DNA of 64,000 bases, taken from assembly GCA_964453605.1 (NCBI GenBank), contig CAYVOI010000001.1:740095-804094 (forward strand), in the 5' to 3' direction. Position numbers and translations under genes: made by a program. Of the stretch, positions 1,826 to 60,288 are shown piece by piece. This DNA is from an uncultured Gammaproteobacteria bacterium (lineage in GTDB: Bacteria > Patescibacteriota > Patescibacteriia > Veblenbacterales > UBA10138). A model generated the notes under the pieces. That model saw nothing but the letters and a program-made list of their open reading frames with translations. It did not search any database and was not told the DNA's origin. Numbering within the stretch: the stretch's first letter is position 1; each line of letters starts with the position of its first letter.

Positions 1826-2429
1826 AATCGCGATGCATAATTATACGTAGTTGCTTTAGGGCACGGTGCTGAATGAGCCGGACGGCCAGGGCCGTTTTAC
1901 CTACCACCTGAGCAGTTTCCTCAACCGTAAACTCTTGAATGAACCTGAGCTCCAGCACCTGGCGGTAGTGAGGTGGCAGCTCGGCACTGGCTTTGCGCAC
2001 CTGCTCAAGCTCACTCTCCTTAAGCGCGGCGGCGGCCGGTGACTCAACATTAGAAGCGACACCTAGTGCTTCGTCAAGCTCAAGGGGCGCTGGCTGGCGG
2101 TAGACCTTGCGGTAGTGGTCGTTCACCGTGTTGCGCGCAATGCTGTAGAGCCAAGCCGAGAAATTGAGCTCCTCCAGCCGCAGGGTTTTCAGCCCCCGCC
2201 AAGCCTTGAGAAAGGTATCTTGTAAAATGTCCTCGGCCTGCTCTTTGGGTTGCACCTTAAAGCTGATGAACTTGTAAATACGGGGTGCAAACGTATCGTA
2301 AAGCTGGCCAAAAGCCACACTGCTTCCGCCCTGGGCGGAAGCTACGAGCGCCAACGTTTCTCCGCCTTCTCGGGGTTCCATAGGCCTTGTACTGTACAAT
2401 AGAACGCCTGGCTTAGCCAGGTGTTTCAC
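1800..2429 (-). CDS. RNA polymerase sigma-70 family, ECF-type sigma factor
   Basis: Region 2 motif DILQDTFLKAWRGL...YSIARNTVNDHYRK and a region 4 helix-turn-helix EFTVEETAQVVGKTALAVRLIQHRALKQLR. Confidence 0.8.
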   Translation of the reverse strand: MKHLAKPGVLLYSTRPMEPREGGETLALVASAQGGSSVAFGQLYDTFAPRIYKFISFKVQPKEQAEDILQDTFLKAWRGLKTLRLEELNFSAWLYSIARNTVNDHYRKVYRQPAPLELDEALGVASNVESPAAAALKESELEQVRKASAELPPHYRQVLELRFIQEFTVEETAQVVGKTALAVRLIQHRALKQLRIIMHRDYGPRYQEV

Positions 2430-2441
2430 CTGCGATGCACC

Positions 2442-4994
2442 CTATAATTTTCCAGCTTTTTCTACCCTCACCACGCCGCCTGGCTCTAAGACTACGACGT
2501 CGCGCCGGGTGAGCTTACCAGTGAGAAGGTAGGTAGCAAGGGCGTTGTCCACGTTCTCTTGGATAACGCGCCGGAGGGGCCGGGCGCCAAAGAGTGGATC
2601 AAACCCTTTATGTGCGAGCTCGGCCACAGCCTCGGGCGATGCTTTAAGGTGCACACCCTTAGCCTCCAAACCCTGGCTCAGTTTAGCTAAGAGTAGCTCG
2701 GTAACTTTTACCACCTCGGGCATGCCTAGGGGTTTAAACACCACGATACCATCAAACCGGTTTAAAAACTCTGGCCTAAAGTACTGCTGCAGCTCGCGCT
2801 CTAAGAGCTGCTTGCGGATAGCCTCAAGAGCTGTACCAGCCTGGAGTTCATGCTGAATAAAGCTGGTGCCGGCGTTTGAAGTTGCTATCACAATACAGTT
2901 GGTAAAGTCTACGGTTTTGCCGGCAGCGTCGGTGAGGCGGCCGTCGTCTAAGAGCTGCAAGAACACGTTCAAAATATCAAGGTGGGCTTTCTCCAACTCA
3001 TCAAGGAGTAGGAGCGTGTAGGGGTTACGGCGCACTGCCTCGGTGAGCAGCCCGCTCGATGAGCCTGTACCCGCCGGCGCGCCAATCAAACGGTACAAGC
3101 TCTCGGCGGTTTGGTACTCTGACATGTCGAGCCGCACCATTTTGTTCTCACCACCAAAGTACTCAGCCGCTACAGTTTTAGCGAGCTCAGTTTTCCCTAC
3201 CCCCGTAGGACCCAAAAAAAGGAACGAGGCAATGGGGCGTTTTTGGTCCCGTAGGTTCACCCGAGCGCGCCGCAAAGCCTGGGCCACCAGGTTCACGGCT
3301 TCATCTTGCCCCACAATACGCCGGTGTAAAATGTCCTCCAAGTTCAAAAGTTTCTCACGCTCACCTTGCGTCACCTGCGTCACCGGCACGTGCACCTTAC
3401 CAGCCACCACTTGGGCTACATCCTCTGCCCCAACCGCGGTGCCACGAGGGTGGCGATCGCGGGCATAAATAGCCACCTCCTCAAGCAGTTTGATAGCTTT
3501 TTCGGGAAGGAAGCGGTCTGGTAGGTACCGACGCGAAAGTTCGACCGCGGCTTGGAGCGCCCCGTAGGCAAAGTACACGTGGTGCTCGCTCTCCAGTGCA
3601 GGCACACGAGACTCCAACACCTGAATGGAGTGGTTATCGTCAAGCTCGGGCACCTGCACTGGTTGGAGTGCCTGGCCAAGAGCACTGTGTACTAAGGTTT
3701 CATTCCAGGCTGCAGCAGTAGCAGTTGCCAGTACCACCAAACCGTGTTGAGCCACAGCCTGGGCTAAGACCTCGGCTGGACCAATTTCGCCCTGGCTACT
3801 CATGCCTGGCGTTACCAGCTGGTCAATGTTCTCAATCCCCAACACAACGTTACCGGCCCGTACCACTTCGGTTACGGCGTGGAGCAACCGCTCACTGGCT
3901 TGGGCTGGTGTGGCCCCAGACAAAAGTTGGGGTAGCGAGAGCAACAACAGGTGCTTATCTTGCAACAGCTCTGGCACCTCCTCTGCCACCATAGCCTGAG
4001 CGATACCCTCAACCAGTGAGCTCTTACCTACCCCCGCCTCCCCCAGGAGCACCACGCTAGCGTGGCCACCTTCGATAATACGGTACACTTCGGCAAGTTC
4101 TGCCTCGCGCCCCACGCACGGGTTAAGGTACCCTCCGGCGGCAAGGCTGGTAAGGTCGCGCGACATGCGGTTGAGGAACGGGGTGGCCACCGCCAGGTAC
4201 GCCCGGTCCAGCGCGTGCTTGGGGCGGGCGCTGGCGCGTGAGGAGCGACGATGGTACTCGGTCAGCAACTTCCGCCGCAGGGCAAACCACGAGGTAATGT
4301 TGCTGACCGCGTCAGGCGGAATGGCCAGCTCTTCTAGAACTTCTTGCACACCACCTGGAGCTTTAGCTAGTGCCAGGAGTACCTCGCTCATTTCCACCTG
4401 CCGTGCTTGGCGAGCCAAGGCCAAACGTGCGGCCTCCAGAAACACACCTTGTGCCTCTTTTGATAGCCGTGCCTCTGGCCCTTGCCCCAAGAGCATGAGC
4501 TCGTTCCGCAAGGTGGTAGCAAGTTTTTCGCGCGGTACCCCAAGGCGCGAAAACAGCCGACGTGCCGTAGGGTAGTGCAGGGCTGCAGCCAACAGGTGAA
4601 TAGGTGCTACCTCTCCCTGCTTGAGCTGCCCCGCGTAGCGGAACGCCTGCGTCAGCATGGCCCAGGTTTCTTCCGACAAGTACTGGTCTACGGTAATGGT
4701 CAGGGCTTCAGGTGGGAGTGCGGGGTACCAGGCACGTTCGCGGTCGAGGCGGTACCAAGCGTAACCCATAATAAGCACACTAAGCCAGAAATACCCGGCG
4801 CCTGGCGCGCGCGGAAAGAACACTTGCCAGGTGAGCGATTCTATAACCGGAAGCGATAGAACCACGAATCGTACTAAGGCCAACACACTCAGGAGCAGTG
4901 CCACAAAAGCCACCAGGCGGTACACGGTTAAACGTAGACGCCGAAACAGCAGGTCTCCTAAACTGTAGTTGTAGTGCCAAGTGAATTCGGCCAC
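2442..4994 (-). CDS. ClpA/ClpB/ClpC-family AAA+ ATPase with N-terminal transmembrane helices and a degenerate first nucleotide-binding domain
   Basis: Clp_N-like repeats. D1 has Walker A GEAGVGKSS but no hhhhDE Walker B. D2 has GPTGVGKTELAK plus LLLLDELEKAH. Two hydrophobic helices sit within the first 100 aa. Confidence 0.8.
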   Translation of the reverse strand: MAEFTWHYNYSLGDLLFRRLRLTVYRLVAFVALLLSVLALVRFVVLSLPVIESLTWQVFFPRAPGAGYFWLSVLIMGYAWYRLDRERAWYPALPPEALTITVDQYLSEETWAMLTQAFRYAGQLKQGEVAPIHLLAAALHYPTARRLFSRLGVPREKLATTLRNELMLLGQGPEARLSKEAQGVFLEAARLALARQARQVEMSEVLLALAKAPGGVQEVLEELAIPPDAVSNITSWFALRRKLLTEYHRRSSRASARPKHALDRAYLAVATPFLNRMSRDLTSLAAGGYLNPCVGREAELAEVYRIIEGGHASVVLLGEAGVGKSSLVEGIAQAMVAEEVPELLQDKHLLLLSLPQLLSGATPAQASERLLHAVTEVVRAGNVVLGIENIDQLVTPGMSSQGEIGPAEVLAQAVAQHGLVVLATATAAAWNETLVHSALGQALQPVQVPELDDNHSIQVLESRVPALESEHHVYFAYGALQAAVELSRRYLPDRFLPEKAIKLLEEVAIYARDRHPRGTAVGAEDVAQVVAGKVHVPVTQVTQGEREKLLNLEDILHRRIVGQDEAVNLVAQALRRARVNLRDQKRPIASFLFLGPTGVGKTELAKTVAAEYFGGENKMVRLDMSEYQTAESLYRLIGAPAGTGSSSGLLTEAVRRNPYTLLLLDELEKAHLDILNVFLQLLDDGRLTDAAGKTVDFTNCIVIATSNAGTSFIQHELQAGTALEAIRKQLLERELQQYFRPEFLNRFDGIVVFKPLGMPEVVKVTELLLAKLSQGLEAKGVHLKASPEAVAELAHKGFDPLFGARPLRRVIQENVDNALATYLLTGKLTRRDVVVLEPGGVVRVEKAGKL

Positions 4995-8928: not shown

Positions 8929-11847
8929 TTAAACTTCTATAATGACCGTTACAATCACACCATCTAAATTTACCTCACTAGAATACTTTGCATGCTCGCC
9001 CTGTTGTAGCTCACGAGCTAAAGCACCCTTGAGTACATCTTCACGATACGCAGATAACACTTTCCAAGTAACCTCATCAGTACCCACTTTCAGTACTACC
9101 CTGTCTTTAATAGTAAGTCCCTGTTTTTTTCTAAGCGCATTTACCTGCCGCACAAATTCGCGCACCAAGCCCATAGCCTTAAGTTCGTCATCAAGTTTAG
9201 TGTCAAGCTCAACTGTCTGAGCCTCCACCACCTCAAGCACGTTTACCTCCTCGGCTACAATGTGCCTAAATACTTCAGGTACGGGGGCTTGCAACTTGCG
9301 CAGCGTTTGCCGAATCTTTATACCAGCCGCCGCACGTTGAGCTAACGCTTGCTCCACCACCGTGCGCACTTTTTGCATTTCGTCCAAAATACTCCGGTCA
9401 AACTTGTGGGCTTCTGGCCAACTCTCGAGGTGAACTGACTCCTTACCACCCTTAACTTCTTGGTACACTTCCTCAGCCACAAACGGGGTAAACGGCGCGA
9501 GCGTAATGGCGAGTTGCCGCAAAACGTAACCCAACGTTGTGCGCACATTACCAGCCTCTAAGCCGCCATTCTTGTACCGCTCGCGGCTGCGACGAATGTA
9601 CCACGTAGAAAGCTCGGTAACAAAGTCGGCCAGGGCACGCCCAGCCTCGGTAATTTTATACGCGTCGAGGTACTCTGTCACTTCCGCTACAGTCTTGTGC
9701 CACAGTGCGAGCACCCACCTGTCCATAACGTGTTCTGAGTGCGGGGGAACGTGGGGGGCTTCCGCCTTCAGCTGGTCGAGGTGGTAAAAGGCCACACAGT
9801 TCATAAGAATGAGGAAGGTTTTCTTAACCACGCTATCTACATCGCTCGGGTCAAAGTTCTTGGGCTCGCCTGGTTGGCTCGCGGTGTAGAAGTGGAACCT
9901 AAGTGCGTCTGCACCGTAGGTGTTCATAATTTCCCACGGGTCCACAATGTTGCCCTTGGACTTGGACATTTTTTGCCCGTGCTTGTCGTTAATGTGCCCC
10001 AGGCAGATGACATTTTTATATGGCGGAAGTTCCTCAATTGCGCCTGCTTTCTTCAAGAGTGTGGCCACAGCCAGAAGCGTATAGAACCACCCGCGCGTTT
10101 GGTCTATAGCTTCAGAAATGTAATCTGCGGGGTAGTGCGCTTTGAGTTGCTCTTTACTGCCCTCGGCGTGTGGGTAGCCCCACTGTGCAAACGGCATGCT
10201 GCCAGAATCAAACCAACAGTCAGCCACCTCCGCAACGCGCCGCATTTCGCCCTTACCCTTGCACTGCTTGCAAGGCCAGGCCACCTTATCTATAAATGGT
10301 CGATGCATGTCAAAGTCCGTCCCAAACTTGCGGCCAGACTTTTCGCTTAATTCTTTCAAGCTCTCCACCACCGTCTGGTGTTTGCAGTCGGCATTGGTAC
10401 ACACCCAAATAGGTAAGGGGGTACCCCAGTAACGTTCACGGGAAATGGCCCAGTCTTTCACGCCGTCCAGCCACTCGCCGAACCGCCCGTGCTGAATGTG
10501 GTCTGGGTACCAGTGTATCTTCTCATTAGCAGCCTGCAGGTCTTTACGCAGACTCGACATTTTAATAAACCACGATGGCTTGGCGTAGTAGAGCAGCGGT
10601 GTAGAGCAGCGCCAGCAAAACGGGTAGTCGTGCGTGTAACTTTCTTCCTTAAACAAAAGCCCTCGTGCTTTCAAATCGGCAATTATCCCCTTTTCTACTT
10701 CGGCATTTTTAACAAACTTCCCCTGCCACTCGGGCACGTCTTTGGTAAACTTACCTGCTTCATCCACCGTGTGGTACTTAGGCAACCCCTCTTTTGTGCC
10801 TAAGGCAAAATCATCTTCCCCGTACATCACCGCAGTATGCACCACGCCCGTACCGTCGGTGGTGGTAACAAAGTCAGCCGCATACACGCGGTGACTTTTT
10901 TCGTTCTGCAAGGGTTCGATGTCGTAGAGCGGCTGATACTCGAGGCCAACCAAATCTTTTCCTTTTAATCCCTTCACAATTTCAAATCTACCAATCCACT
11001 CACCAGCTTTTTCATCAACACCTATCCGTTGGTTTAAACCACCATCCCTTGTGTGGTTAAATAAAATTTCCTTTGCAAGAATATATTGGCCCAACGAAGA
11101 GGTGGAATCAACCTTCGGAAATGCTTCGACAATTAGATAATCAATGTCTTCACCTACAGCCAGCGCCACGTTGCCAGGCAAAGTCCATGGCGTGGTTGTC
11201 CAAGAGAGAATGGAAACTTTGGGGTCGCGCTTCATGCGGAACTTTACATACACCGCTTGGTCGCTGACACTCTGGTAGCCCTGCGCCACCTCGTGACTCG
11301 AAAGTGCCGTGCCGCAGCGCGGACAGTGAGGCAACACTTTGTAGTCTTGGTACAGCAAGCCCTCGTTGGCGATTTGCTTAAAAATCCACCATAAACTCTC
11401 GAGGTAGTAGTTCTCGTAGGTAACGTAGGGGTGCTCCAGGTCCAGCCAGTAGCCCATGCGCGTCGTAAGCTTTTCCCAGTCAGCCTTGTACTTCCACACG
11501 TCTTCACGGCAACGGGCGTTGAACTCAGCCACACCATACTTTTCAATGTCGGGCTTACCCTTGAACTTCAAATCTTTCTCAACCTGGAGCTCCACCGGCA
11601 AACCTTGCGTGTCCCAACCGGCCTTACGCTCCACCCTAAACCCACGCATGGTTTTGTAACGCGGAATAAGGTCCTTAAAGGCGCGGGCCAGCACGTGGTG
11701 CAACCCCGGCTTGCCGTTGGCCGTGGGCGGCCCTTCCCAAAAAACGAACGGCTTGCCACCCTTCGTCTGCGCCAGCGATTTCTCAAAAATGTCGTGGTCC
11801 TGCCAAAACTTCAGCACCTTGTCCTCGAGTTCGGGAAACTTCAGCAT
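8929..11847 (-). CDS. ileS: Isoleucine--tRNA ligase (long eukaryote-like form)
   Basis: HIGH-region PGLHHVLA, KMSKS motif GQKMSKSKGN, editing domain, 972 aa. Confidence 0.95.
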   Translation of the reverse strand: MLKFPELEDKVLKFWQDHDIFEKSLAQTKGGKPFVFWEGPPTANGKPGLHHVLARAFKDLIPRYKTMRGFRVERKAGWDTQGLPVELQVEKDLKFKGKPDIEKYGVAEFNARCREDVWKYKADWEKLTTRMGYWLDLEHPYVTYENYYLESLWWIFKQIANEGLLYQDYKVLPHCPRCGTALSSHEVAQGYQSVSDQAVYVKFRMKRDPKVSILSWTTTPWTLPGNVALAVGEDIDYLIVEAFPKVDSTSSLGQYILAKEILFNHTRDGGLNQRIGVDEKAGEWIGRFEIVKGLKGKDLVGLEYQPLYDIEPLQNEKSHRVYAADFVTTTDGTGVVHTAVMYGEDDFALGTKEGLPKYHTVDEAGKFTKDVPEWQGKFVKNAEVEKGIIADLKARGLLFKEESYTHDYPFCWRCSTPLLYYAKPSWFIKMSSLRKDLQAANEKIHWYPDHIQHGRFGEWLDGVKDWAISRERYWGTPLPIWVCTNADCKHQTVVESLKELSEKSGRKFGTDFDMHRPFIDKVAWPCKQCKGKGEMRRVAEVADCWFDSGSMPFAQWGYPHAEGSKEQLKAHYPADYISEAIDQTRGWFYTLLAVATLLKKAGAIEELPPYKNVICLGHINDKHGQKMSKSKGNIVDPWEIMNTYGADALRFHFYTASQPGEPKNFDPSDVDSVVKKTFLILMNCVAFYHLDQLKAEAPHVPPHSEHVMDRWVLALWHKTVAEVTEYLDAYKITEAGRALADFVTELSTWYIRRSRERYKNGGLEAGNVRTTLGYVLRQLAITLAPFTPFVAEEVYQEVKGGKESVHLESWPEAHKFDRSILDEMQKVRTVVEQALAQRAAAGIKIRQTLRKLQAPVPEVFRHIVAEEVNVLEVVEAQTVELDTKLDDELKAMGLVREFVRQVNALRKKQGLTIKDRVVLKVGTDEVTWKVLSAYREDVLKGALARELQQGEHAKYSSEVNLDGVIVTVIIEV

Positions 11848-11897
11848 AGTACCCTCTAGAATAGCTATTTTTCAGTCAACTCGCAACCAACTTGACA
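11806..11897. repeat. Copy 1 of a ~90-bp duplicated module: ileS 5' end (first ~14 codons), ileS promoter region, and a divergent TTGACA box
   Basis: By eye about 75-80% identical to 12966..13050, including a perfectly identical 15-mer cttcagcatagtacc. Confidence 0.6.
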
Positions 11898-11978
11898 AAT
11901 TAAAGAAGAAAATGTAACGTTGTTTGATAATAAAATTTAATAAACTCTTTAAAAAATGACACAAAGAAAGGAACGGCC

Positions 11979-12860
11979 ATGCCAGAAGCACTAGATCTTC
12001 TCGGCGCTCAACTCATGTTGGCGCTACAGTTTTATGAATCGAACTTTAACACCAACCTCACCCTGGTAGATACTGTATCAGCGGAAGAGAAATACTCCTG
12101 TAAGGAATTGTTTAATCGCCAGGGTAAAGTGTGGTGTCTACGAGCAGAGTCTATACCGGGTAACCTAACGATTAAATCAATCTCTGTCGACAAACGGAAC
12201 CTATACCTTGAAACAGCGCCACTTAACTGGGATGGGGTAGCCCAAGTTCTCAAGGATCAGATGCTACCCTTTGATTGTAATCCTACTCAGAGAAGGTTCT
12301 CGGACAGCACCAACGGCCAAAAGCTGATTACCATCAGCAAACCAACCTCACCAAAGTACGAGGGAACATCACTCGCACCCCGATGTCTCTGGACCATACC
12401 ACTAATTGGTCAGGACGCTATTCGTCGCAAGATGATGATCAAACTGGCTGATGTGATTTATACGGCAGATGCGTACTCCTACCAAGGTATCGGGGGAGAG
12501 AAAATAGCAGTTGAAGGCTCTGGTAAGGGAGGCAGACTCGAGCTCCAAGTTTTACTTGAGCTCCAGATGCAGCTGCAGGCTGAACAACGGGCTATTCTAT
12601 CATTACGTGGGGCACTGCGTGGTGAGCTAAGGCTTGAGTTGCAACAAATCTTGGGTTTGTACTACTCGATCGTTCGAATGAATGAAGATGAGCTTCTTAA
12701 ATTCATAGTTGATCACACAGAAAAGCATGGGGAAAAGACTACCGTGCAGGTCCTCAATTTCGCCCTGGCTGGCAAAATCAAACGTGCTCAACCCAAACTG
12801 ACTTGGAGAGAAGCTCGTGCAATGGCAAGAAAACTTGCCAATAGCAAACCGCCTCAGTAA
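11979..12860 (+). CDS. Hypothetical protein; low-GC (~46%) gene sitting between the two copies of the ileS 5' module
   Basis: 293-aa ORF with AT-rich codon usage unlike its neighbours. Preceded by a TTGACA box at 11892 and followed by a strong terminator. Confidence 0.6.
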   Translation: MPEALDLLGAQLMLALQFYESNFNTNLTLVDTVSAEEKYSCKELFNRQGKVWCLRAESIPGNLTIKSISVDKRNLYLETAPLNWDGVAQVLKDQMLPFDCNPTQRRFSDSTNGQKLITISKPTSPKYEGTSLAPRCLWTIPLIGQDAIRRKMMIKLADVIYTADAYSYQGIGGEKIAVEGSGKGGRLELQVLLELQMQLQAEQRAILSLRGALRGELRLELQQILGLYYSIVRMNEDELLKFIVDHTEKHGEKTTVQVLNFALAGKIKRAQPKLTWREARAMARKLANSKPPQ

Positions 12861-12867
12861 AGGAAAC

Positions 12868-12902
12868 TCCTCGCGCCGAAATACAGCGCGAGGAGTTTTT
12901 TA
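12868..12902 (+). terminator. Rho-independent terminator
   Basis: ctcctcgcg-N10-cgcgaggag hairpin followed by TTTTTTAT. Confidence 0.65.
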
Positions 12903-12920
12903 TTGCTAAATTAACACGAC

Positions 12921-13004
12921 CTACATCTGCTCTACGACTTTGATACCCAAAATGCCAAGGCCGTGCTTCAGCACCTTCTCCTCGAACTCTGGGGACTTCA
13001 GCAT
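12921..13004 (-). pseudogene. Truncated duplicate of the ileS start: 27-codon ORF MLKSPEFEEKVLKHGLGILGIKVVEQM with a duplicated upstream promoter
   Basis: The first 12 codons are homologous to the ileS N-terminus (MLKFPELEDKVLKF). It runs into the terminator at 12868-12902. Confidence 0.5.
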
Positions 13005-13050
13005 AGTACCTAGAATAATAGCATTTTGCCTATTTCGCAACCATTTGACA
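12966..13050. repeat. Copy 2 of the ileS 5'-end/promoter module
   Basis: See copy 1 at 11806..11897. Confidence 0.6.
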
Positions 13051-13073
13051 GCTTTTAAAGTAGTGGTTAAGAT
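13045..13073 (+). promoter_or_regulatory. Sigma70-like promoter: TTGACA, 17-nt spacer, TAAGAT
   Basis: Canonical -35, 17-bp spacer, -10-like TAAGAT. Sits about 50 nt upstream of the ORF at 13125. Confidence 0.4.
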
Positions 13074-13124
13074 ACGCTACACTAATTCACAAATAACTAT
13101 TCCAAAAACAAAACGAGGTCAGCC

Positions 13125-13340
13125 ATGGACAAGCCAACTTCCTGCCCGGTGTGCGGGCAGGACGCTACCCCCCTCAACCAGCTCTGTGGTAAACACGAGG
13201 AAATCTTTAACAGGGCGAACGAAGAAACGCAAGCCATGATAACTAAGCTCCTCCACGAACTCATTCACGCACAAAGGGAGGCGCTTACCATAACAAAAGG
13301 ATTCATACCCTCAGCTGGAGCAACTCGGGGCGGCAGGTAG
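13125..13340 (+). CDS. Small zinc-ribbon-like hypothetical protein (71 aa)
   Basis: CPVCG...C motif. GAGG Shine-Dalgarno 8 nt upstream. Lies downstream of the promoter at 13045. Confidence 0.4.
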   Translation: MDKPTSCPVCGQDATPLNQLCGKHEEIFNRANEETQAMITKLLHELIHAQREALTITKGFIPSAGATRGGR

Positions 13341-13474
13341 CTAACTGTCACGTACGTTCATCAAATAGAATCGGGCCACGGGGTTACGCCACGTAGTCCG
13401 GTTTTTTTAACCTAGCACAAGTCGAATGATGCCTGGGCTTTAGGGCTACCTTCGCAAACGTATCAACGCTAAGG

Positions 13475-15205
13475 TTACATCTGCTCCACCACGCCGATAC
13501 CTAAAACACTAAGCCCGTGTTTCAGAACCCCCGCCACGGTACTAACCAGGTACAGGCGAAAGCTGCGCACTGGCTCTTTGGCCGAGAGTACCGGCGAGTC
13601 GTGGTAGTAGGAGTTGGTGGCGGTCGCCAGCTCGTACAGGTACTGAGCCAAGAGGTGTGGCCCGTTCTCGCGTGCGGCCCGCAGAACGGCCTCGGGGTAG
13701 CGGACGGTGAGCCGCAGCATCTGTACATCACTCTGCGCCAAGCTCGTAAGAACGCTGGGCTTGAATGTTTTTGCTACCCGCACCTTGGCACTCTTAGCTT
13801 TACGCAAAATGCTCTTAAGCCGTACGTAGGTGTACTGTAGGTACGGTCCGCTGTTACCCTCAAACGAGAGCATCTTGTCCCAGTTAAAGGTAATGTCGGT
13901 GTGGCGGTTTTGTGATAGATCGTTGTACTTCAAAGCGCCCACCCCCACCACTTCCGCTACCTGAGCCCTAACTTTTGGCGCCAGCTTGTTGTTCTTCTTA
14001 TCCACAATCGCCCGGGCACGAGTGACCGCTTCTTGGAGTACATCGTCAAGCTTTATTATTTTGCCCTCGCGGGTAGCAAGTTTAAGGCCGTCTTCGCCAA
14101 GCACCAGCCCGTTTTTGAGATGCAAGAGCTCAAGGTGGTGCGGTGCGTAGCCCGCGTGGCGAGCAGCCGCGAACACCTGCTCAAAGTGGAGGGCTTGTTC
14201 GTTCCCCACCACGTAGAGTATGGCCTGGGGCTTGTAGTGCTGTACGCGGTAGCGAATGGCGGCCAGGTCGCGTGTAGCGTAGAGCGACACACCGTCCGAC
14301 TTCTGAATAAGTGCCGGTGGCAACCCCTCACCCTCCAGGTGCACCACGACCGAACCATCTGTGTTCTTAACGGCCAGTTTACGCTTCAAAAAGTCAGCCA
14401 CTACCCCGGGCAGCATTTTTTCATAAAAGCTCTCGCCGGTAACGTGGGTGAACTTTACCCCCAAGCGCTTATAGAGAACGTCAAACTCTCGGAGAGACTC
14501 CGTACGGAACCACTGCCACAGCGCCCGGTTCTTGCGGTCACCCTCTTCCAGCTTTTTAAACTCCTCCTGCCCGCGGCGTTCCAGATCAGGCTGCTCTTTC
14601 AGCACCTCGTGGAACTTCACGTAGAGCTTCAGCAACTCTTCAATCGGGTGTCGGTGTACAGCGGAGCGAGAACCCCACATCTTAAAAGCTGAAATCAGTT
14701 TACCAAACTGTGTGCCCCAGTCGCCGAGGTGGTTAAGGCGAATAACCTTGGCCCCAAGCGTTTGGTAAATGTTCGCTACCGCCTGGCCGATTATGGTCGA
14801 GCGCAGGTGCCCAATGTGCATGGGCTTGGCAATGTTCGGGGAGGAGTACTCAACAATAACACGCTTACCCTTAAACACGGGGGTCACTTCCCCGTTCGAC
14901 ACTGCCGCAAGCTCGTGGAGCAGCACTTCTGGTTTCAGGGTAAAGTTGATAAACCCTGGGCCAGCAAGTTCCACCTTAGCAGCATACCTAGCAATAACAC
15001 GGGATGTTTTGAGCTCATCAAGCAATGTTTGGGCCGCTTCCTTGGGTGGCACGCCCCACTTGCTGGCGACTTTCAAAGCTACATTGGTAGTGTAGTCGCC
15101 GTGGCCAAGGTCGCGCGTTAAAGCTACCTCGACCTCGTGAGGTTCAAGCTGGTAGTGCTTTTGGGCAGCGAGCGCTACCTCGTGCTGAAGTTTTAGGGAA
15201 AGCAT
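13475..15205 (-). CDS. argS: Arginine--tRNA ligase
   Basis: HIGH motif SPNIAKPMHIGHLRS. 576 aa with ArgRS domain order. Confidence 0.9.
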   Translation of the reverse strand: MLSLKLQHEVALAAQKHYQLEPHEVEVALTRDLGHGDYTTNVALKVASKWGVPPKEAAQTLLDELKTSRVIARYAAKVELAGPGFINFTLKPEVLLHELAAVSNGEVTPVFKGKRVIVEYSSPNIAKPMHIGHLRSTIIGQAVANIYQTLGAKVIRLNHLGDWGTQFGKLISAFKMWGSRSAVHRHPIEELLKLYVKFHEVLKEQPDLERRGQEEFKKLEEGDRKNRALWQWFRTESLREFDVLYKRLGVKFTHVTGESFYEKMLPGVVADFLKRKLAVKNTDGSVVVHLEGEGLPPALIQKSDGVSLYATRDLAAIRYRVQHYKPQAILYVVGNEQALHFEQVFAAARHAGYAPHHLELLHLKNGLVLGEDGLKLATREGKIIKLDDVLQEAVTRARAIVDKKNNKLAPKVRAQVAEVVGVGALKYNDLSQNRHTDITFNWDKMLSFEGNSGPYLQYTYVRLKSILRKAKSAKVRVAKTFKPSVLTSLAQSDVQMLRLTVRYPEAVLRAARENGPHLLAQYLYELATATNSYYHDSPVLSAKEPVRSFRLYLVSTVAGVLKHGLSVLGIGVVEQM

Positions 15206-16472: not shown

Positions 16473-16769
16473 CTAAATGGTACGTACAGAATCTCTCAAC
16501 ATTAATCCTAGTGATTTCTTACCAGGGTTCGTCTTGAAATACTGTTCTCTGCGAATCGCATCTACTTTACTAAGGTACGCTTCGTAGAAAACAAGTTTCA
16601 AGGGGCGTCGTCCCTTTGTTGCTAGTACGCCACCGGCATGGTGTGTGCGTATACGACTTTTTAAATCTGCACTATAACCAATGTAGAACTTTTTGTCGCT
16701 TGAGCTCACCAGTACGTAGACGTAATGCATAGGTATAGCCCTAAAGTAGATTTTGCTTCGCTCAATCAC
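16473..16769 (-). CDS. GIY-YIG nuclease superfamily small protein (UPF0213-like); the probable true start is the internal ATG at 16730
   Basis: YVYVL...FYIGYS...SRIRTH...EAYL...REQYFK motifs. GC ~44%. The extension to 16769 uses a GTG start. Confidence 0.65.
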   Translation of the reverse strand: MIERSKIYFRAIPMHYVYVLVSSSDKKFYIGYSADLKSRIRTHHAGGVLATKGRRPLKLVFYEAYLSKVDAIRREQYFKTNPGKKSLGLMLRDSVRTI

Positions 16770-22990: not shown

Positions 22991-23015
22991 GGGCCCGTGG
23001 TGTAGCCCGGTTAAC
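22991..23015 (+). pseudogene. 25-nt fragment identical to the 5' end of tRNA-Asp (acceptor 5' strand plus D-arm)
   Basis: gggcccgtggtgtagcccggttaac is identical to 23094-23118, then diverges. Confidence 0.6.
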
Positions 23016-23093
23016 CCCGAAGAATGTTCGCTGACGCTCACATCTACGGGGCGCGGCACGTCTCAACGCTCTTTAAAATGAAATGCACAAAGC

Positions 23094-23168
23094 GGGCCCG
23101 TGGTGTAGCCCGGTTAACACGTCTCCCTGTCACGGAGAAGACCGCCGGTTCGAATCCGGTCGGGCCCG
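23094..23168 (+). tRNA. tRNA-Asp (GTC), 75 nt, CCA not encoded
   Basis: Manual cloverleaf. Acceptor GGGCCCG/CGGGCCC. D-stem GTGT/ACAC. Anticodon stem TCTCC/GGAGA. Loop CTGTCAC. T-arm GCCGG-TTCGAAT-CCGGT. Discriminator G. Confidence 0.85.
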
Positions 23169-23221
23169 CTTTGTGCGTCTCACTGCCTGCCCCGTATAGA
23201 TACCGCAGTATCTTGTACGGG

Positions 23222-23264
23222 GTCACGGAGAAGACCGCCGGTTCGAATCCGGTCGGGCCCGCCA
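23222..23264 (+). pseudogene. 43-nt fragment equal to the 3' part of tRNA-Asp from the anticodon loop to the 3' end, plus an encoded CCA
   Basis: gtcacggagaagaccgccggttcgaatccggtcgggcccg is identical to 23129-23168, followed by cca. Confidence 0.6.
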
Positions 23265-31455: not shown

Positions 31456-31553
31456 TTATACCCCTACTAGGCGCTGAAACTCTGTTTCACTCATTACCTT
31501 AATCCCCAACTTTTTTGCTTTATCCAATTTACTCCCTGGGTTTTCACCCACCT
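31456..31553 (-). pseudogene. Diverged duplicate of the last ~31 codons of ligA (BRCT C-terminus), ...[31 protein letters not shown]
   Basis: Manual translation. The true ligA ends [30 protein letters not shown]. The 27-bp core is identical. The fragment is AT-richer at its 3' end. Confidence 0.55.
31523..31549. repeat. 27-bp perfect direct repeat tccaatttactccctgggttttcaccc, copy A
   Basis: Identical to 32397..32423, which lies inside the ligA 3' coding end. Confidence 0.85.
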
Positions 31554-31576: not shown

Positions 31577-32308
31577 CTAGCTTAGCTGAGCGTACGCTAG
31601 CACACCAAAATGGTCAGACGGGTACGGTCTATGGCGCTGTCCTGGCACCACCCCATACCGATTGATACGCCAATCGCGAGTGAAAAAAATGGCATCGTAA
31701 CAAAACAAAGGTACGCCCAACCAATGCGTGGTGGGTTGTGGGTTAGGAACTGTCTGAAAGCCCGCCCGATAGAGCGTTCGCCACACCCGACTCCGCGGCC
31801 CAGAGTTAAAATCACCAGCTACTACCTTAGGCCCAGCCCCGGCTGCGTGCACCTGGGCTAGCAGCACGGCCAGCGCCTTACGCTTACCCGACAAGTTAAA
31901 AGCCAACGGCAGGTGAGTATTGTAAACCGTAAATGGCCTGGGATCTGAAAGGTACTTAAACCTTCCCCAGGTGCATATTCTTGGGTAGAGATCGTACCCA
32001 CGGCTGGGCTTAGCTGGGGTTGAGCTCAACCAAAAGCTACCCTGCTCAAGCAAAGTGACGGCGCTAGTGTTATAGAAAACAGCACAGTATTCGCCAGTGG
32101 TCTTACCATCGTCTCTGCCTACACCAATAAAGCTGTAGTTCAACAGATGCGCTTGTAAAAACTCGAGCTGTGGGGTCTTCGCTTCCTGCACACAAAAGAG
32201 ATCAGGCTGGGTTTGTAGTAAAATAGGTAGGCACAGCTCCCGTCTCTTGTGCCAAGACTTTTGGCTGAGGCTGACATCAACCTTGAGGTTCCAACTGATA
32301 AATCGCAT
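31577..32308 (-). CDS. Endonuclease/exonuclease/phosphatase (EEP) family protein
   Basis: SWNL...CVQE...GDFN...SDH motifs. GC ~50%. Bracketed by the 27-bp direct repeats. Confidence 0.7.
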   Translation of the reverse strand: MRFISWNLKVDVSLSQKSWHKRRELCLPILLQTQPDLFCVQEAKTPQLEFLQAHLLNYSFIGVGRDDGKTTGEYCAVFYNTSAVTLLEQGSFWLSSTPAKPSRGYDLYPRICTWGRFKYLSDPRPFTVYNTHLPLAFNLSGKRKALAVLLAQVHAAGAGPKVVAGDFNSGPRSRVWRTLYRAGFQTVPNPQPTTHWLGVPLFCYDAIFFTRDWRINRYGVVPGQRHRPYPSDHFGVLAYAQLS

Positions 32309-32332: not shown

Positions 32333-35169
<2,837 letters not shown>

Positions 35170-41613: not shown

Positions 41614-42087
41614 TTACTGAATCCCGTTCGGCGTAGCGGTGTGAGCTGTGCCGGTCGCAAGACCAGACATAGCTGCGTTCTCAGTAGTGAAAGCCAAACT
41701 ATAGCTGATACAGGTGGTGCCTGCATTGGTGCACCCCGAGGGGGTAGGCGTGTAGGCGTAGGTATCACTCTGCGGGGGAACTGGAACCTTACCCATGTAC
41801 ACCGTGCCCCCAGCACTGCCGCTCGCAGTGAAACCGGCTGCTGTATTACTGAGGGTTGCGGCAGTAGCACCGCCAAGGTTACCACTGTAGGCTGGATAGC
41901 CAGTCTGGTCACCGTAGTAAAGCTCCATGGCGGTGACGAGCTGCTTGATATCGCTGACGCGCTTGGCGTCACGGGCCTTCTGCCTCGCGTTCTGCAGGGC
42001 CACAATGGCCAGGGTCGACAGAATGCCGATGATGGCAATAACCACCAAGAGCTCGATGAGGGTAAAACCTTTGTGTTGGTTCTTCAT
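41614..42087 (-). CDS. pilA: Type IV major pilin (prepilin with G|FTLIELL class III signal), copy 1
   Basis: [34 protein letters not shown]. Strong SD AGGAGGTGA. C-terminal disulfide-bonded loop region. The ORF track's 163-aa form starts 18 nt upstream. Confidence 0.85.
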
Positions 42088-42103
42088 GCTGTCACCTCCT
42101 TTC
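41616..42103. repeat. 488-bp tandem duplicate unit 1 (pilA CDS plus SD)
   Basis: Appears identical to 42219..42706. Every frame of the two regions translates identically in the ORF track. Confidence 0.8.
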
Positions 42104-42216: not shown

Positions 42217-42690
42217 CTACTGAATCCCGTTCGGCGTAGCGGTGTGAGCTGTGCCGGTCGCAAGACCAGACATAGCTGCGTTCTCAGTAGTGAAAGCCAA
42301 ACTATAGCTGATACAGGTGGTGCCTGCATTGGTGCACCCCGAGGGGGTAGGCGTGTAGGCGTAGGTATCACTCTGCGGGGGAACTGGAACCTTACCCATG
42401 TACACCGTGCCCCCAGCACTGCCGCTCGCAGTGAAACCGGCTGCTGTATTACTGAGGGTTGCGGCAGTAGCACCGCCAAGGTTACCACTGTAGGCTGGAT
42501 AGCCAGTCTGGTCACCGTAGTAAAGCTCCATGGCGGTGACGAGCTGCTTGATATCGCTGACGCGCTTGGCGTCACGGGCCTTCTGCCTCGCGTTCTGCAG
42601 GGCCACAATGGCCAGGGTCGACAGAATGCCGATGATGGCAATAACCACCAAGAGCTCGATGAGGGTAAAACCTTTGTGTTGGTTCTTCAT
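42217..42690 (-). CDS. pilA: Type IV major pilin, copy 2 (amino-acid sequence identical to copy 1)
   Basis: Same as copy 1. Confidence 0.85.
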
Positions 42691-42706
42691 GCTGTCACCT
42701 CCTTTC
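42219..42706. repeat. 488-bp tandem duplicate unit 2
   Basis: See unit 1. Confidence 0.8.
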
Positions 42707-59000: not shown

Positions 59001-59942
59001 GGTATTAGATTAGACGATAAAGCTACTAGCTACACTGAACAACGCAAATACATTGGGCAAGAGTATGACGCTGACACAGGCCTCAACTACCTCAATGCGA
59101 GGTACTACAACGGAACGACGGGCAGATTCCTAAGTGAGGACCCGATGTTTTGGGATAACAAGCAGGATGTTTCTAATCCTCAGGGCCTGAATTCATATTC
59201 GTATTCCAATGACAATCCAATAATCTATAATGATCCCACTGGCAATAGAGCTGAAATTGTTATTAAAAATCTATATCCTATCTTAGGAGCCCATGGTTTT
59301 GTTAATATAATTCCAGATAAAGGAGAGGACTTAAGTCAATACGGTAGCACGGATCACTTTACTATAGGGGGCTATTCTAATGGAAAGCCAACTGGTGCAC
59401 CACTTACCGCACAGATTAATAATCCTGGTGACCTGAATGTTTCCCCATCTCGTATCTTAGCAACATATCCACTTACTGTTCCTGAAGGAATGACGTCAAC
59501 TCAATATGACCAAGCCTTACTTAACGCTGGAACCGCTTTGACAAAACAAAACTTGGGAACTTATACATTTACTGGACGACCAATTAGTAGTAATGCAAAT
59601 TCTGGTAACACCTGGACTCAGGTTGTCTTAGATGCAGGGGGAGCCGTGCCAAATATTCCAAACGTCTACTATGGAGCCGGAATTTTAGGACCCAAAACTC
59701 CTTATTTCCCGTTGGGTTCGGGGCATTCTCTCAACACCTTATCCTACAGTCAGCGAACAGGCCAAAGCACAAGGTATGCTGCTAATCAGATTGTAAATAA
59801 CGCAATCTCTGCAGCTCAAGCCACGAGCACTACTGCTCAATATGTTGGCAATGCTATTGGCCATGCTGTAAACACAGTTTCATCGTCAGTATTGAATCTC
59901 AATTCTTTACTATTACACTCTTTAATAGAGTATGGGCACTAA
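53001..59942 (+). CDS. RHS/YD-repeat polymorphic toxin, TcB/TcC-like fusion: SpvB-like N-terminal domain, FG-GAP-like repeats, RHS shell, RHS core, C-terminal toxin domain
   Basis: Signal peptide. SpvB-type motif VVGYGWSLSVPYIERL. Many YTYD/YxYDxxGNL YD repeats. Canonical RHS core ...RYYNGTTGRFLSEDP...NDPTGN. GC falls sharply after the core (about 59.1 to 59.94 kb). Confidence 0.9.
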   Translation: MQHSPFTPTQLVFSRKLTALLLAFLFLLPPLAPVLAASADQVAGDSSSSTTKVVPLAAPSDATPTATTTPSTTTDSGTSAAAVTPPASPTDTASASPTDQTSTKSPTTNSTTAPATSSTSTSDSTSTPQSAAPIAKATLPQADPATGALVYSYPFTLPPGRSGLQPDLKLQYNSQQLDDQNVVGYGWSLSVPYIERLNKHGSDKIYTSTDFSSSLSGELVNVSGNQYAAKVESGDFLSYTYDGASWQVKDKRGTLYLFGQSTLSRQNDTTGTQTYRWLLSQVVDTNNNSVTYEYLKDSGQMYPSKVSYTGQGADLGIFSVNLTYETRPDAATSYRSGFQVITAKRLSLVEAKVSGTLVHRWSLNYTSGANGQRSLLNSITETGFDSTGVATSLPPMQFTYSTASTTNPIWQADPSWQVPTDVNFSRYGSQNNWRRVDINGDGLTDFVQAQGITNYNTGVTTYVQKTYLNTGTGWVTSNAWQLPLAAMQAWGRTYLIDLNGDSKLDLFIGRQPPIVDAQSQNQIFMNTGSGWQPSSWVVSSDPILPGIGDTSGDENRNSYGWVLLDVNGDSLPDLIEALRASDGTSTITRRALINTGNGWVEDATNFQTPPDIDLGIYNPSAGGSQVVTIDLNNDGLVDLFDFDKRVAFINTGKGWQQTTAFAIPVDPGLLAYYKACNPQATSTGTQGLRLIDVNNDGIADLERSGQYEITNCPSPTYQSLYRGSATDWLGPPGNAQLPADVLFYANEQQPEQKVFAFKFVDIDGDGSVDILTALTKPLTSETLREVRRYQGAKPDVLSRITYPTGGSTSVTYKASDQYKDQNGNLLNPNLPQNLQTVASLATSDGAGLTQNVSYTYAGGLYAYQSATDRKFAGFAKVTSTDSAGTTTTTFYHQGNSTNSAQGEYNDTFAKIGHSYRTEVGDSAGNLVNASITKWDSVDLGQGRSFVKPTQTLNFTYDGNTTHRDTAVTTTYDDTNGNVTQVTQWGEVQATDSGTFTDVGNDKLVTTTTYATGSGYGVTGLPASQVTNDQASTKVKEARLYYDTLALGSVGKGNITKQEQWVAGTTYVNTQKTYNPYGLVTQELDPRGKASTYVYDSYNLYPSTVTNALNQTTQYQYDYSAGKPTQVTDANGYVYQTVYDGLDRVVGEKQPDLTTPATLVSKTAYVYTDTPGSVSVKKTSYLDSATGVDAYTYFDGLGRPVQTRTEAETAGQFNAADTVYDARGLTQKQSLPYASSGSAKTAPTGASELYTTFTYDATGRPLTAVNSIGTTTSAYDDWKTTVTDARGNTTSRTQDAYGNLSYVTEPGGGTTTYTYNDAGNLTGMADAAGNVRSFTYDGLGQRLTAQDLHAPADTTFGAWAYTYDAAGNLTQKLDPKGQTINYTYDDLNRPLTEDYTGAPGTEVAYTYDACQNGKGRLCSVASAALTTTEQYDALRNTAREIKTINSSAYQTDYTYDRAGNMLTITNPDSSKVQYTYNTSGQLESVSRKEAADAGFASVVTNFDYGPTGSIVTQANANGTTTTNTYDAAKLYRLARKLTVNSGGTKLQDINYTYDAVGNITQTVNASQTNAAKTTVYTYDALNRLLTTTATGAANGQNYSQNFTYDAIGNMLTGPAGTYTYAGTGYANPHAVTSLGSATYSYDQNGNLVSDGVKTYTWDYANRLVRVDRPGPTPAPVTTTFYPAAGDGSASYQGASSWATTHDAATGTAATPTATTTNVSSGRGSGGKYQIERSFLPFDTSALPDNATITGARLKVFVASKLNDDNDNYDFVTVVQGLEPSTLSLTTADYSLAGTINTPAESVDAAERKDITSVATGAYLTFNVNNTGLGLVSKTGPTKLALREGHDVLNIPFAPSVATQTQAASSIKLAAVTGGGGSTSGYNQLQIRTSEYTGTTTDPILEVTYQLPAPIVSSTYAYDASGQRVTVTSGGVTTVYPSKTYNTDGTKKTKHIFAGDTMAATIETTGTTTTPHFIATDNLSGSNVVTSSTGTQEELTDYYPFGGIRLDDKATSYTEQRKYIGQEYDADTGLNYLNARYYNGTTGRFLSEDPMFWDNKQDVSNPQGLNSYSYSNDNPIIYNDPTGNRAEIVIKNLYPILGAHGFVNIIPDKGEDLSQYGSTDHFTIGGYSNGKPTGAPLTAQINNPGDLNVSPSRILATYPLTVPEGMTSTQYDQALLNAGTALTKQNLGTYTFTGRPISSNANSGNTWTQVVLDAGGAVPNIPNVYYGAGILGPKTPYFPLGSGHSLNTLSYSQRTGQSTRYAANQIVNNAISAAQATSTTAQYVGNAIGHAVNTVSSSVLNLNSLLLHSLIEYGH

Positions 59943-60288
59943 AAATACATCGATTTTTTTAATTCGTTCATCAAATAATGTTTTTCTAGGGGCCCTGATT
60001 CTAGTACTAACAATTATTGCTAGTTCAATAGTTTTTAATTCTATTCTTGAATTAGTGGGATCTCTGGTCAATAAAAATGGGTATGTGTACGAAACATTCT
60101 ATTACTTTAGTCCCATAATATTACCTACTATTATTTCAAGCTACTTATTTAAAGAAAATAAAAAAAGTTTAGCGTTTATAGCTATCGTTGGCGGTGTGTT
60201 GTATTACCTATGGTTATGGTTTGGTTTACTTTGGATGTCAGCCGAGGCCCAATCCCCAATTTTCTATGGCCTAATTCGGCCATATTAA
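59932..60288 (+). CDS. Putative cognate immunity protein (small polytopic membrane protein)
   Basis: 118-aa ORF that overlaps the Rhs stop. Very AT-rich. Three or four TM helices. Confidence 0.5.
   Translation: MGTKNTSIFLIRSSNNVFLGALILVLTIIASSIVFNSILELVGSLVNKNGYVYETFYYFSPIILPTIISSYLFKENKKSLAFIAIVGGVLYYLWLWFGLLWMSAEAQSPIFYGLIRPY

Follow-up and report, generated by a model that had tools for sequence, protein, structure and literature searches.

A 64,000-nucleotide stretch of DNA from an uncultured bacterium that GTDB places in the Patescibacteriota (GenBank assembly GCA_964453605.1, contig CAYVOI010000001.1, positions 740,095 to 804,094; hereafter the window) carries on its minus strand the genes infC, rpmI, rplT, argS, ileS and recO, in this order. 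Between argS and ileS lie two plus-strand open reading frames (ORFs), one encoding 293 amino acids (aa) and named here g293, the other encoding 71 aa. The locus is probably a recombination scar, left when a foreign segment of about 1.16 kb with one gene was spliced between argS and ileS. The scar is best read as one of an ordinary, generally known kind, that is, as the record of a gene gain and not as a new regulatory device. A preliminary description of this DNA had proposed an insertion carrying a promoter region, and this is still the best reading, as a duplication brackets a compositionally foreign gene and the second copy of the duplicated region still fronts a small Cys-rich ORF. A simple insertion with one repeat does not describe the locus, which consists of two tandem units, each running from an argS end to an ileS start and with unrelated interiors; the repeat of the argS end had been overlooked.

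Two Diverged Repeats and an ileS'::'argS Chimera

The functional ileS (8929-11847, minus strand; 972 aa) is identified by its Pfam domains (tRNA-synt_1, 1.4e-120; Anticodon_1; DUF5915) and by synteny with relatives, and the functional argS (13475-15205, minus strand; 576 aa) by tRNA-synt_1d (2.2e-101), DALR_1 and Arg_tRNA_synt_N. Read on the minus strand, the locus falls into two head-to-tail units that share one architecture: an argS end, a terminator, a small gene, back-to-back promoters and an ileS start. In unit A the end of the functional argS is followed by a terminator-like hairpin (13381-13399; with its T-run 13381-13409, plus strand, found by scan after the 71-aa ORF), the 71-aa ORF on the opposite strand (13125-13340, plus), back-to-back promoters and ileS codons 1-13. 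Unit B holds the last 14 codons of argS, a second hairpin (12864-12898, found by repeat search), g293 on the opposite strand (11979-12860, plus), back-to-back promoters and the full ileS. This second hairpin has a perfect 13-bp stem with 100% complementary arms and a 9-nt loop, is followed by a T-run and lies 22 nt from the stop codon of the argS relic, as expected of a true gene end; it would be a bidirectional terminator, common to g293 and, in the presumed donor, to argS. The interiors of the two units are unrelated and differ in length (about 424 nt for the unit with the 71-aa ORF and about 1024 nt for the g293 unit); the sole match found by repeat search between 11898-12920 and 13051-13474 is a 13-nt stretch, likely due to chance.

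The first repeat is the ileS start with its promoter region, which had been reported to be present twice and is so, at 11809-11897 (copy 1) and 12966-13050 (copy 2), both on the minus strand. Each copy contains 13 codons of ileS, not 14 as first described, the ribosome-binding region, putative promoter hexamers in roughly 50 nt of sequence from upstream of ileS, and a TTGACA box on the plus strand (11892-11897 and 13045-13050). The codons read MLKFPELEDKVLK in the functional copy (11809-11847) and MLKSPEFEEKVLK in copy 2, where the ATG lies at 13004. Repeat search gave 79% identity over 62 nt without gaps (11809-11870 against 12966-13027), self-BLAST of the 64-kb window 83.6% over 55 nt (E=2.5e-8), and a MAFFT alignment of the whole module 65 of 89 positions identical with two small indels. 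Identity is thus 73-84% depending on the span compared, above the 60% below which the preliminary description would have given up the duplication. A Smith-Waterman comparison of the 500 nt on each side of the g293 ORF scored 66 against 19.3 +/- 2.2 for shuffled sequences (z=21). At the gene-internal edge of the repeat there is a perfect run of 12 nt, CTTCAGCACCTT, after which identity drops to 73-84%, and it is to be kept in mind that local alignments tend to start at matches.

Conservation between the two copies is uneven. The MAFFT alignment shows that the ATG with the ribosome-binding region, the minus-strand hexamers TATTCT and TTGCGA (read from the sequence as putative -10 and -35 of ileS and present in both copies) and the TTGACA box have been kept, and that the 17-nt stretch separating TATTCT from TTGCGA is scrambled; judged from the alignment, this block pattern is that of a footprint, not of uniform decay, and TTGCGA-17-TATTCT is the predicted ileS promoter. 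In copy 2 the ribosome-binding region is weakened by a 3-nt deletion. Copy 1 had been thought to serve both ileS and g293, and on the g293 side the site, TTGACA-17-TAACGT, is weak and below the threshold of the promoter scan. The TTGACA-17-TAAGAT sequence ahead of the 71-aa ORF, also described before, was recovered by the scan (13045-13073, plus strand; 10/12) as a promoter-like site on the strength of its consensus match only.

The second repeat comes from the 3' end of argS. The final 14 codons of the functional gene, with their stop (13475-13519), recur on the minus strand at 12921-12965 as HGLGILGIKVVEQM plus stop, within a repeat of 63 nt and 75% identity (12922-12984 against 13476-13538; repeat search, self-BLAST E=1.6e-4). 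The two repeats abut at 12965/12966 in frame, and together they form the 27-codon ORF that had been described as an ileS-like dead end. The ORF exists and starts like ileS, and its second half is the C-terminus of ArgRS. From the ATG at 13004 to the stop at 12921-12923 it reads MLKSPEFEEKVLK followed by HGLGILGIKVVEQM, its first 13 residues corresponding to the IleRS start and its last 14 to the ArgRS end (HGLSVLGIGVVEQM in the functional copy). The relic is 82% identical to the real argS end over 17 aa (tblastn, E=1.2e-5), and in a Pfam search residues 21-39 at the chimera match positions 99-117 of the 117 of DALR_1, the last 19 of this anticodon-binding domain. The joint lies on a 9-bp sequence, GTNCTGAAR, encoding Val-Leu-Lys, which occurs as GTGCTGAAG in ileS codons 11-13 and at the junction (12966-12974, minus strand) and as GTTCTGAAA in the resident argS (13520-13528). 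The 27-codon ORF therefore represents a recombination junction formed at a 9-bp microhomology, a novel end-to-start joint at which ileS codon 13 continues in frame into the final 14 argS codons.

Composition, Codon Positions and a Proposed Route

As the preliminary description had noted, g293 is a low-GC gene. Its GC content is 0.472 and its GC at third codon positions (GC3) 0.469, both about 2 SD under the window ORFs, which average 0.562 +/- 0.046 and 0.642 +/- 0.091. The composition of the 71-aa ORF is typical (GC 0.54, GC3 0.61), and this ORF is presumed to be the one native to the spacer. The zinc ribbon with which it had been credited is a putative one: the cysteine pattern is CxxC...CxxH (CPVC...CGKH), no family match was obtained, and a search of 5.8 billion proteins returned only the ORF itself. 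Elsewhere in the window, an ORF at 59932-60288 has a GC of 0.328 and a GC3 of 0.286 in a 55% GC background and is another candidate for recent acquisition.

The differences between functional ends and relics are distributed over codon positions as 4:2:11 for ileS and argS together (p=0.019 against a uniform distribution) and as 12:6:31 when the three analogous pairs described below are pooled with them (p=3e-5). A model of neutral decay of the relic in place is rejected on the pooled data (p=0.0096), and the locus and the pooled data alike are fitted by a model that lets the two copies evolve as functional gene ends. Moreover, the relic argS end retains states that are common to relatives (I, K/E, TTG) and have been lost from the functional copy. 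Codon positions and relic states thus favour two alleles from different lineages, modestly so for this locus alone.

A route to the present arrangement may be proposed. A related donor lineage would have carried the argS stop, a shared terminator, g293 convergent with argS, back-to-back promoters and ileS, and the resident genome would have had the 71-aa ORF in its argS-ileS spacer. A donor segment that began with the final 14 argS codons, spanned g293 and the promoter region and reached into ileS would have recombined homologously within ileS at one end, and at its other, argS end would have been joined illegitimately to codon 13 of the resident ileS through GTNCTGAAR. Equivalently, the segment could have been circularised at the Val-Leu-Lys microhomology and then integrated in the Campbell manner. 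The outcome would be an intact ileS under the incoming promoter copy and a stranded resident ileS promoter with the first 13 codons, which would serve only the 71-aa ORF on one side and, on the other, drive the chimera into the hairpin terminator.

Homology-facilitated illegitimate recombination in natural transformation and Campbell-type insertion-duplication are known mechanisms. The locus resembles the former in pairing a presumed homologous join with one at a short microhomology (GTGCTGAAG against GTTCTGAAA), with putatively foreign DNA beside a homologous anchor, and the latter in that a target segment is duplicated; atypical composition and the third-codon-position bias would suit a foreign origin of the inserted DNA, and no donor sequence was found. 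Unlike homology-facilitated events, which mostly delete recipient DNA, the event at this locus left a duplication, and its donor is a presumed one.

Several points weigh against a recombination scar of this origin. Over a stretch of about 90 nt that is about 80% identical, homologous exchange would work very poorly, and in descriptions of classical homology-facilitated illegitimate recombination the usual product is a deletion, not a duplication. Neither a donor-type (argS-g293-ileS) nor a recipient-type (argS-71-aa ORF-ileS only) genome was met with in scans of genome contigs, and the nearest relatives are just 63-69% identical in IleRS; the polarity of the transfer and the foreign origin of the flanks therefore have to be inferred. 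A sliding comparison of IleRS identity with eight relatives showed ordinary conservation and no donor tract, and the idea of a mosaic tract in ileS was dropped. Finally, codon positions at the argS-ileS locus alone do not reject the decay model (p=0.16).

This last result is also in line with a tandem duplication in situ, an unlikely competitor, in which unequal crossing-over between the argS and ileS Val-Leu-Lys microhomologies on sister chromosomes would have doubled the whole interval; the copies would then have diverged, with one interior gene replaced, or with two ancestral genes differentially lost. The head-to-tail layout and an ileS'::'argS junction at the 9-bp repeat are exactly what such an event predicts, and both copies share derived states (MLK..KVLK, KHGL..VVEQM) unseen in the sampled relatives. 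However, homology does not extend over the whole length of the units: only their ends match, the interiors being unrelated, unequal in length and different in composition, and the flanks 16-27% diverged. For the copies to diverge by about 20-25% in place, useless DNA would have had to persist for a long time in a compact genome (876-kb contig). The promoter hexamers stand out as conserved blocks, and decay is rejected by the pooled codon positions.

The argS-ileS Spacer in Relatives

The comparison with the ileS upstream region of relatives, suggested in the preliminary description, covered ten Patescibacteria-type contigs, eight of which hold both argS and ileS; the other two (L013 and L015) start inside or just before ileS. 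The two genes are adjacent and in the same order in 8/8, and rplT and recO flank them wherever the contig extends that far. The spacer between them measures 91, 141, 243, 255 and 275 bp in five relatives, about 1.2 kb in two and 1.5 kb in one. The site holds a sigma-70-like gene of 348 aa in L009 (4887-5933), an acyltransferase-like fragment in L012 (site 1911-3077), and a GIY-YIG gene with ORFs of no assigned function in L017 (site 1943-3439); spacers empty of genes also occur. Spacer length and content thus vary among relatives, which makes this a variable site at which allelic spacers with different cargo exist. The duplication, g293 and the 71-aa ORF were found at argS-ileS in none of the relatives examined.

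Small GIY-YIG ORFs occur both in the window (16473-16769, minus strand), between infC and the tmRNA gene, and inside the argS-ileS spacer of L017 (2889-3221); as a matter of speculation, such ORFs near the cluster could supply DNA breaks at the locus. In L009, the last 15 residues of a gene for a DUF11-type surface protein (9619-11496) recur with 100% identity at 11604-11648, about 108 nt past the stop.

The Same Geometry at Other Loci

The same arrangement is found at a second place in the window. The ligA gene (32333-34330, minus strand), which has acquired a new 3' end (32333-32423), is followed by a gene of the Exo_endo_phos family (31577-32308, minus strand; 243 aa, Pfam 3.2e-18), past which lie an intact-looking relic of the ligA C-terminus (31465-31549) and a terminator. 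The ligA end and the relic are identical over the first 27 nt and then diverge, with 75% identity over the first 72 nt compared.

Two further cases come from other contigs. In L007, a relative of g293 (46% identical) is bracketed by a 60-nt, 78% identical duplicate of the 3' end of the upstream gene (408-467 and 1503-1562), in which seven codon differences are synonymous and three non-synonymous. In L093, an IS200-like Y1_Tnp gene (485-1174) flanked by CTTGGCGGTTAAACCGCCAAG hairpins sits between the 3' end of an SMC gene (428-468) and its relic (1211-1251), which is decaying and holds a stop codon, and a relative of the 293-aa gene immediately adjoins the IS200-like gene and relic. A scan for gene-end relics gave one match in 126 kb of Patescibacteria ileS loci and no genuine match in 690 kb of other bacteria.

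The cargoes at these loci (Exo_endo_phos, the g293 family, IS200-like) are unrelated, and therefore the geometry is not tied to g293; this makes a passive origin by recombination more likely than active participation of the protein. Two apparent leads did not hold: the Exo_endo_phos genes of the window and of L002, where one stands beside a g293-family member, are unrelated, and what looked like an inverted second copy of the gene at the end of L005 is the contig's own sequence repeated in inverted orientation, probably through misassembly.

Other partial or complete duplications in the window are of different form. Upstream of the tRNA-Asp gene (23094-23169), at 103 nt, there is a perfect 25-nt copy of its 5' part, and 93 nt downstream a perfect 41-nt copy of its 3' half, ending in CCA, so that the gene is accompanied by two partial duplicates (all within 22991-23262). 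At 41615-42103 and 42218-42706, a perfect 489-bp direct repeat with 603-nt spacing contains two identical type IV pilin-like genes in tandem.

The 293-aa Protein Family and the Question of an Active Role

No match to g293 was found in Pfam, PHROG, PADLOC or NCBIfam. Its family comprises eight relatives among 5.8 billion proteins, or 129 cluster representatives by exhaustive search, all of about 290 aa, and none was present in the viral contigs scanned. The relatives reside in unrelated neighbourhoods (beside ABC transporter, MreB, ArsR/GDH, HMA and other genes), and a metagenome scan with the family found five loci, again in other contexts; a further profile search of the large protein database added nothing among the candidates considered. 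Between the related contigs L007 and L093, the family gene with its terminator shows about 88% identity, and no homology is left past the T-run of the terminator; the gene therefore travels with its terminator as a block. Flanking repeats occur at some of these loci: among the seven with both flanks available, two lie between an end of the neighbouring gene and a diverged duplicate of that end (z=21 and z=16), and five have no flank repeat.

The AlphaFold2 model of g293 (pLDDT 91) consists of an alpha/beta domain (residues 1-165) and a helical bundle (184-288). Foldseek found nothing significant in the PDB, and neither did a sequence-profile search of the PDB; a BFVD match at E 5.5e-4, within the cut-off of E <= 0.001, has a TM-score of 0.12 and an rmsd of 18.6 and is not meaningful. 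Three of 80 family members match Sigma54_AID in Pfam (best E 5.6e-7) through a Gln/Leu-rich central segment (L.L.Q.L..EQRP.L.L). This lead was not supported by hhalign of the family profile against E. coli RpoN, and the matches are provisionally put down to chance similarity of Gln/Leu-rich sequence.

Elements that restore the end of the gene into which they insert are well known, among them e14 and phage 21 in the icd gene of E. coli and the islands in tRNA genes. As in the e14/icd type, a direct repeat of a host gene end brackets the insertion. The copy on the side of the element is a diverged allele by which the gene stays whole, the end that was displaced persists as a relic, and a perfect run lies at the gene-internal edge. 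In contrast to that type, the present unit has a single 293-aa ORF in 1.16 kb and no integrase was found in it, the regenerated part is the 5' end with the promoter, the far junction is chimeric with the neighbouring gene, and the members of the 293-aa family share no target gene. Neither a tyrosine nor a serine recombinase is recognisable in g293, which has no domain match and no meaningful fold match.

In fungal mitochondria, partial C-terminal duplications of cob and atp6 flank free-standing homing endonuclease ORFs (PMC6279837). The order of gene, inserted ORF(s) and partial duplicate of the terminus is the same as in that case, and the ligA, L007 and L093 loci match it closely; the mitochondrial insertions carry LAGLIDADG or GIY-YIG genes (PMC6279837), whereas the cargo here is without nuclease signature and the host is bacterial. 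No LAGLIDADG, GIY-YIG, HNH or PD-(D/E)xK domain could be recognised in g293. A transposon is equally ill suited, since there is no transposase domain and the repeat is 85-89 nt long and diverged; the sole inverted repeat within 11809-12965 is the terminator hairpin, and a 17-nt inverted pair of 88% identity (13016-13032 against 13801-13817) lies outside the unit and is probably due to chance. Taken together, the features that define integrase elements, homing endonucleases, transposons and simple tandem duplications are lacking at this locus, and a microhomology is present at the joint.

It is nevertheless conceivable, if improbable, that the 293-aa protein is itself the active agent. It would then be a recombinase or homing-type nuclease of a new kind, with a small cassette that enters essential genes at their ends and supplies a substitute end. 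The two bracketed family loci, the discrete block of gene and terminator in differing contexts, the confident and unmatched fold and the rare, patchy distribution of the family speak for this, as do, if weakly, the perfect runs at the gene-internal repeat edge, which resemble an att core (12 nt here, 27 nt at ligA, 15 nt in L093). Against it stand the failure of profile and fold searches to find a nuclease or recombinase, the lack of terminal inverted repeats and of a common target, the five family loci without flank repeat, the same geometry around an unrelated Exo_endo_phos gene and an IS200-like element, and the lack of relatives in viral contigs. If true, the family would be the agent of a new class of very small mobile cassettes (about 1.1 kb) in Patescibacteria and other bacteria. 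Such cassettes would break or recombine DNA where essential genes end and would survive through the replacement gene ends that they bring, which would explain the recurrent diverged gene-end duplicates.

Two further explanations have very little in their favour. The two units resemble alleles of one locus, as co-assembled strains would give, and an assembly artefact could have concatenated two strain variants of the argS-ileS spacer; this is highly improbable, as the 9-12 nt shared by the partners at the junction would hardly suffice for a false k-mer join, the reading frame of the chimera runs exactly through the microhomology, and a 27-kb contig from an independent Logan assembly (L001) is identical base for base over 12,882 bp that include the whole locus. 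Equally hard to credit is that the stranded copy, with its intact promoter hexamers and open frame, is kept for a function, either as a decoy promoter or as a 27-aa leader or regulator peptide for ileS, argS or the 71-aa ORF, as neither an Rfam family nor a T-box was found in 11500-13700, the ribosome-binding region has lost 3 nt, Phe4, kept in 8/8 relatives examined, is now Ser, a terminator lies about 25 nt past the stop, and nothing similar occurs in any relative.

Implications for Gene Gain in Streamlined Genomes

As a recombination scar, the argS-ileS locus records base by base the entry of a gene between two essential genes of a streamlined, episymbiont-type genome, with damage to neither, and the chimeric mini-ORF fixes the position of the joint and identifies the microhomology involved. 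The 293-aa family, whose members of about 290 aa are confidently predicted to fold and have no known domain or fold, is a candidate for study in its own right. The recurrence of the arrangement with three unrelated cargoes suggests that insertions in these organisms favour the ends of essential genes, and that stranded gene-end relics could be used to mark, date and trace horizontal transfers. More broadly, it is conceivable, if improbable, that end-regenerating insertion beside essential genes is a general way in which these streamlined genomes acquire genes; the window by itself has two such loci.

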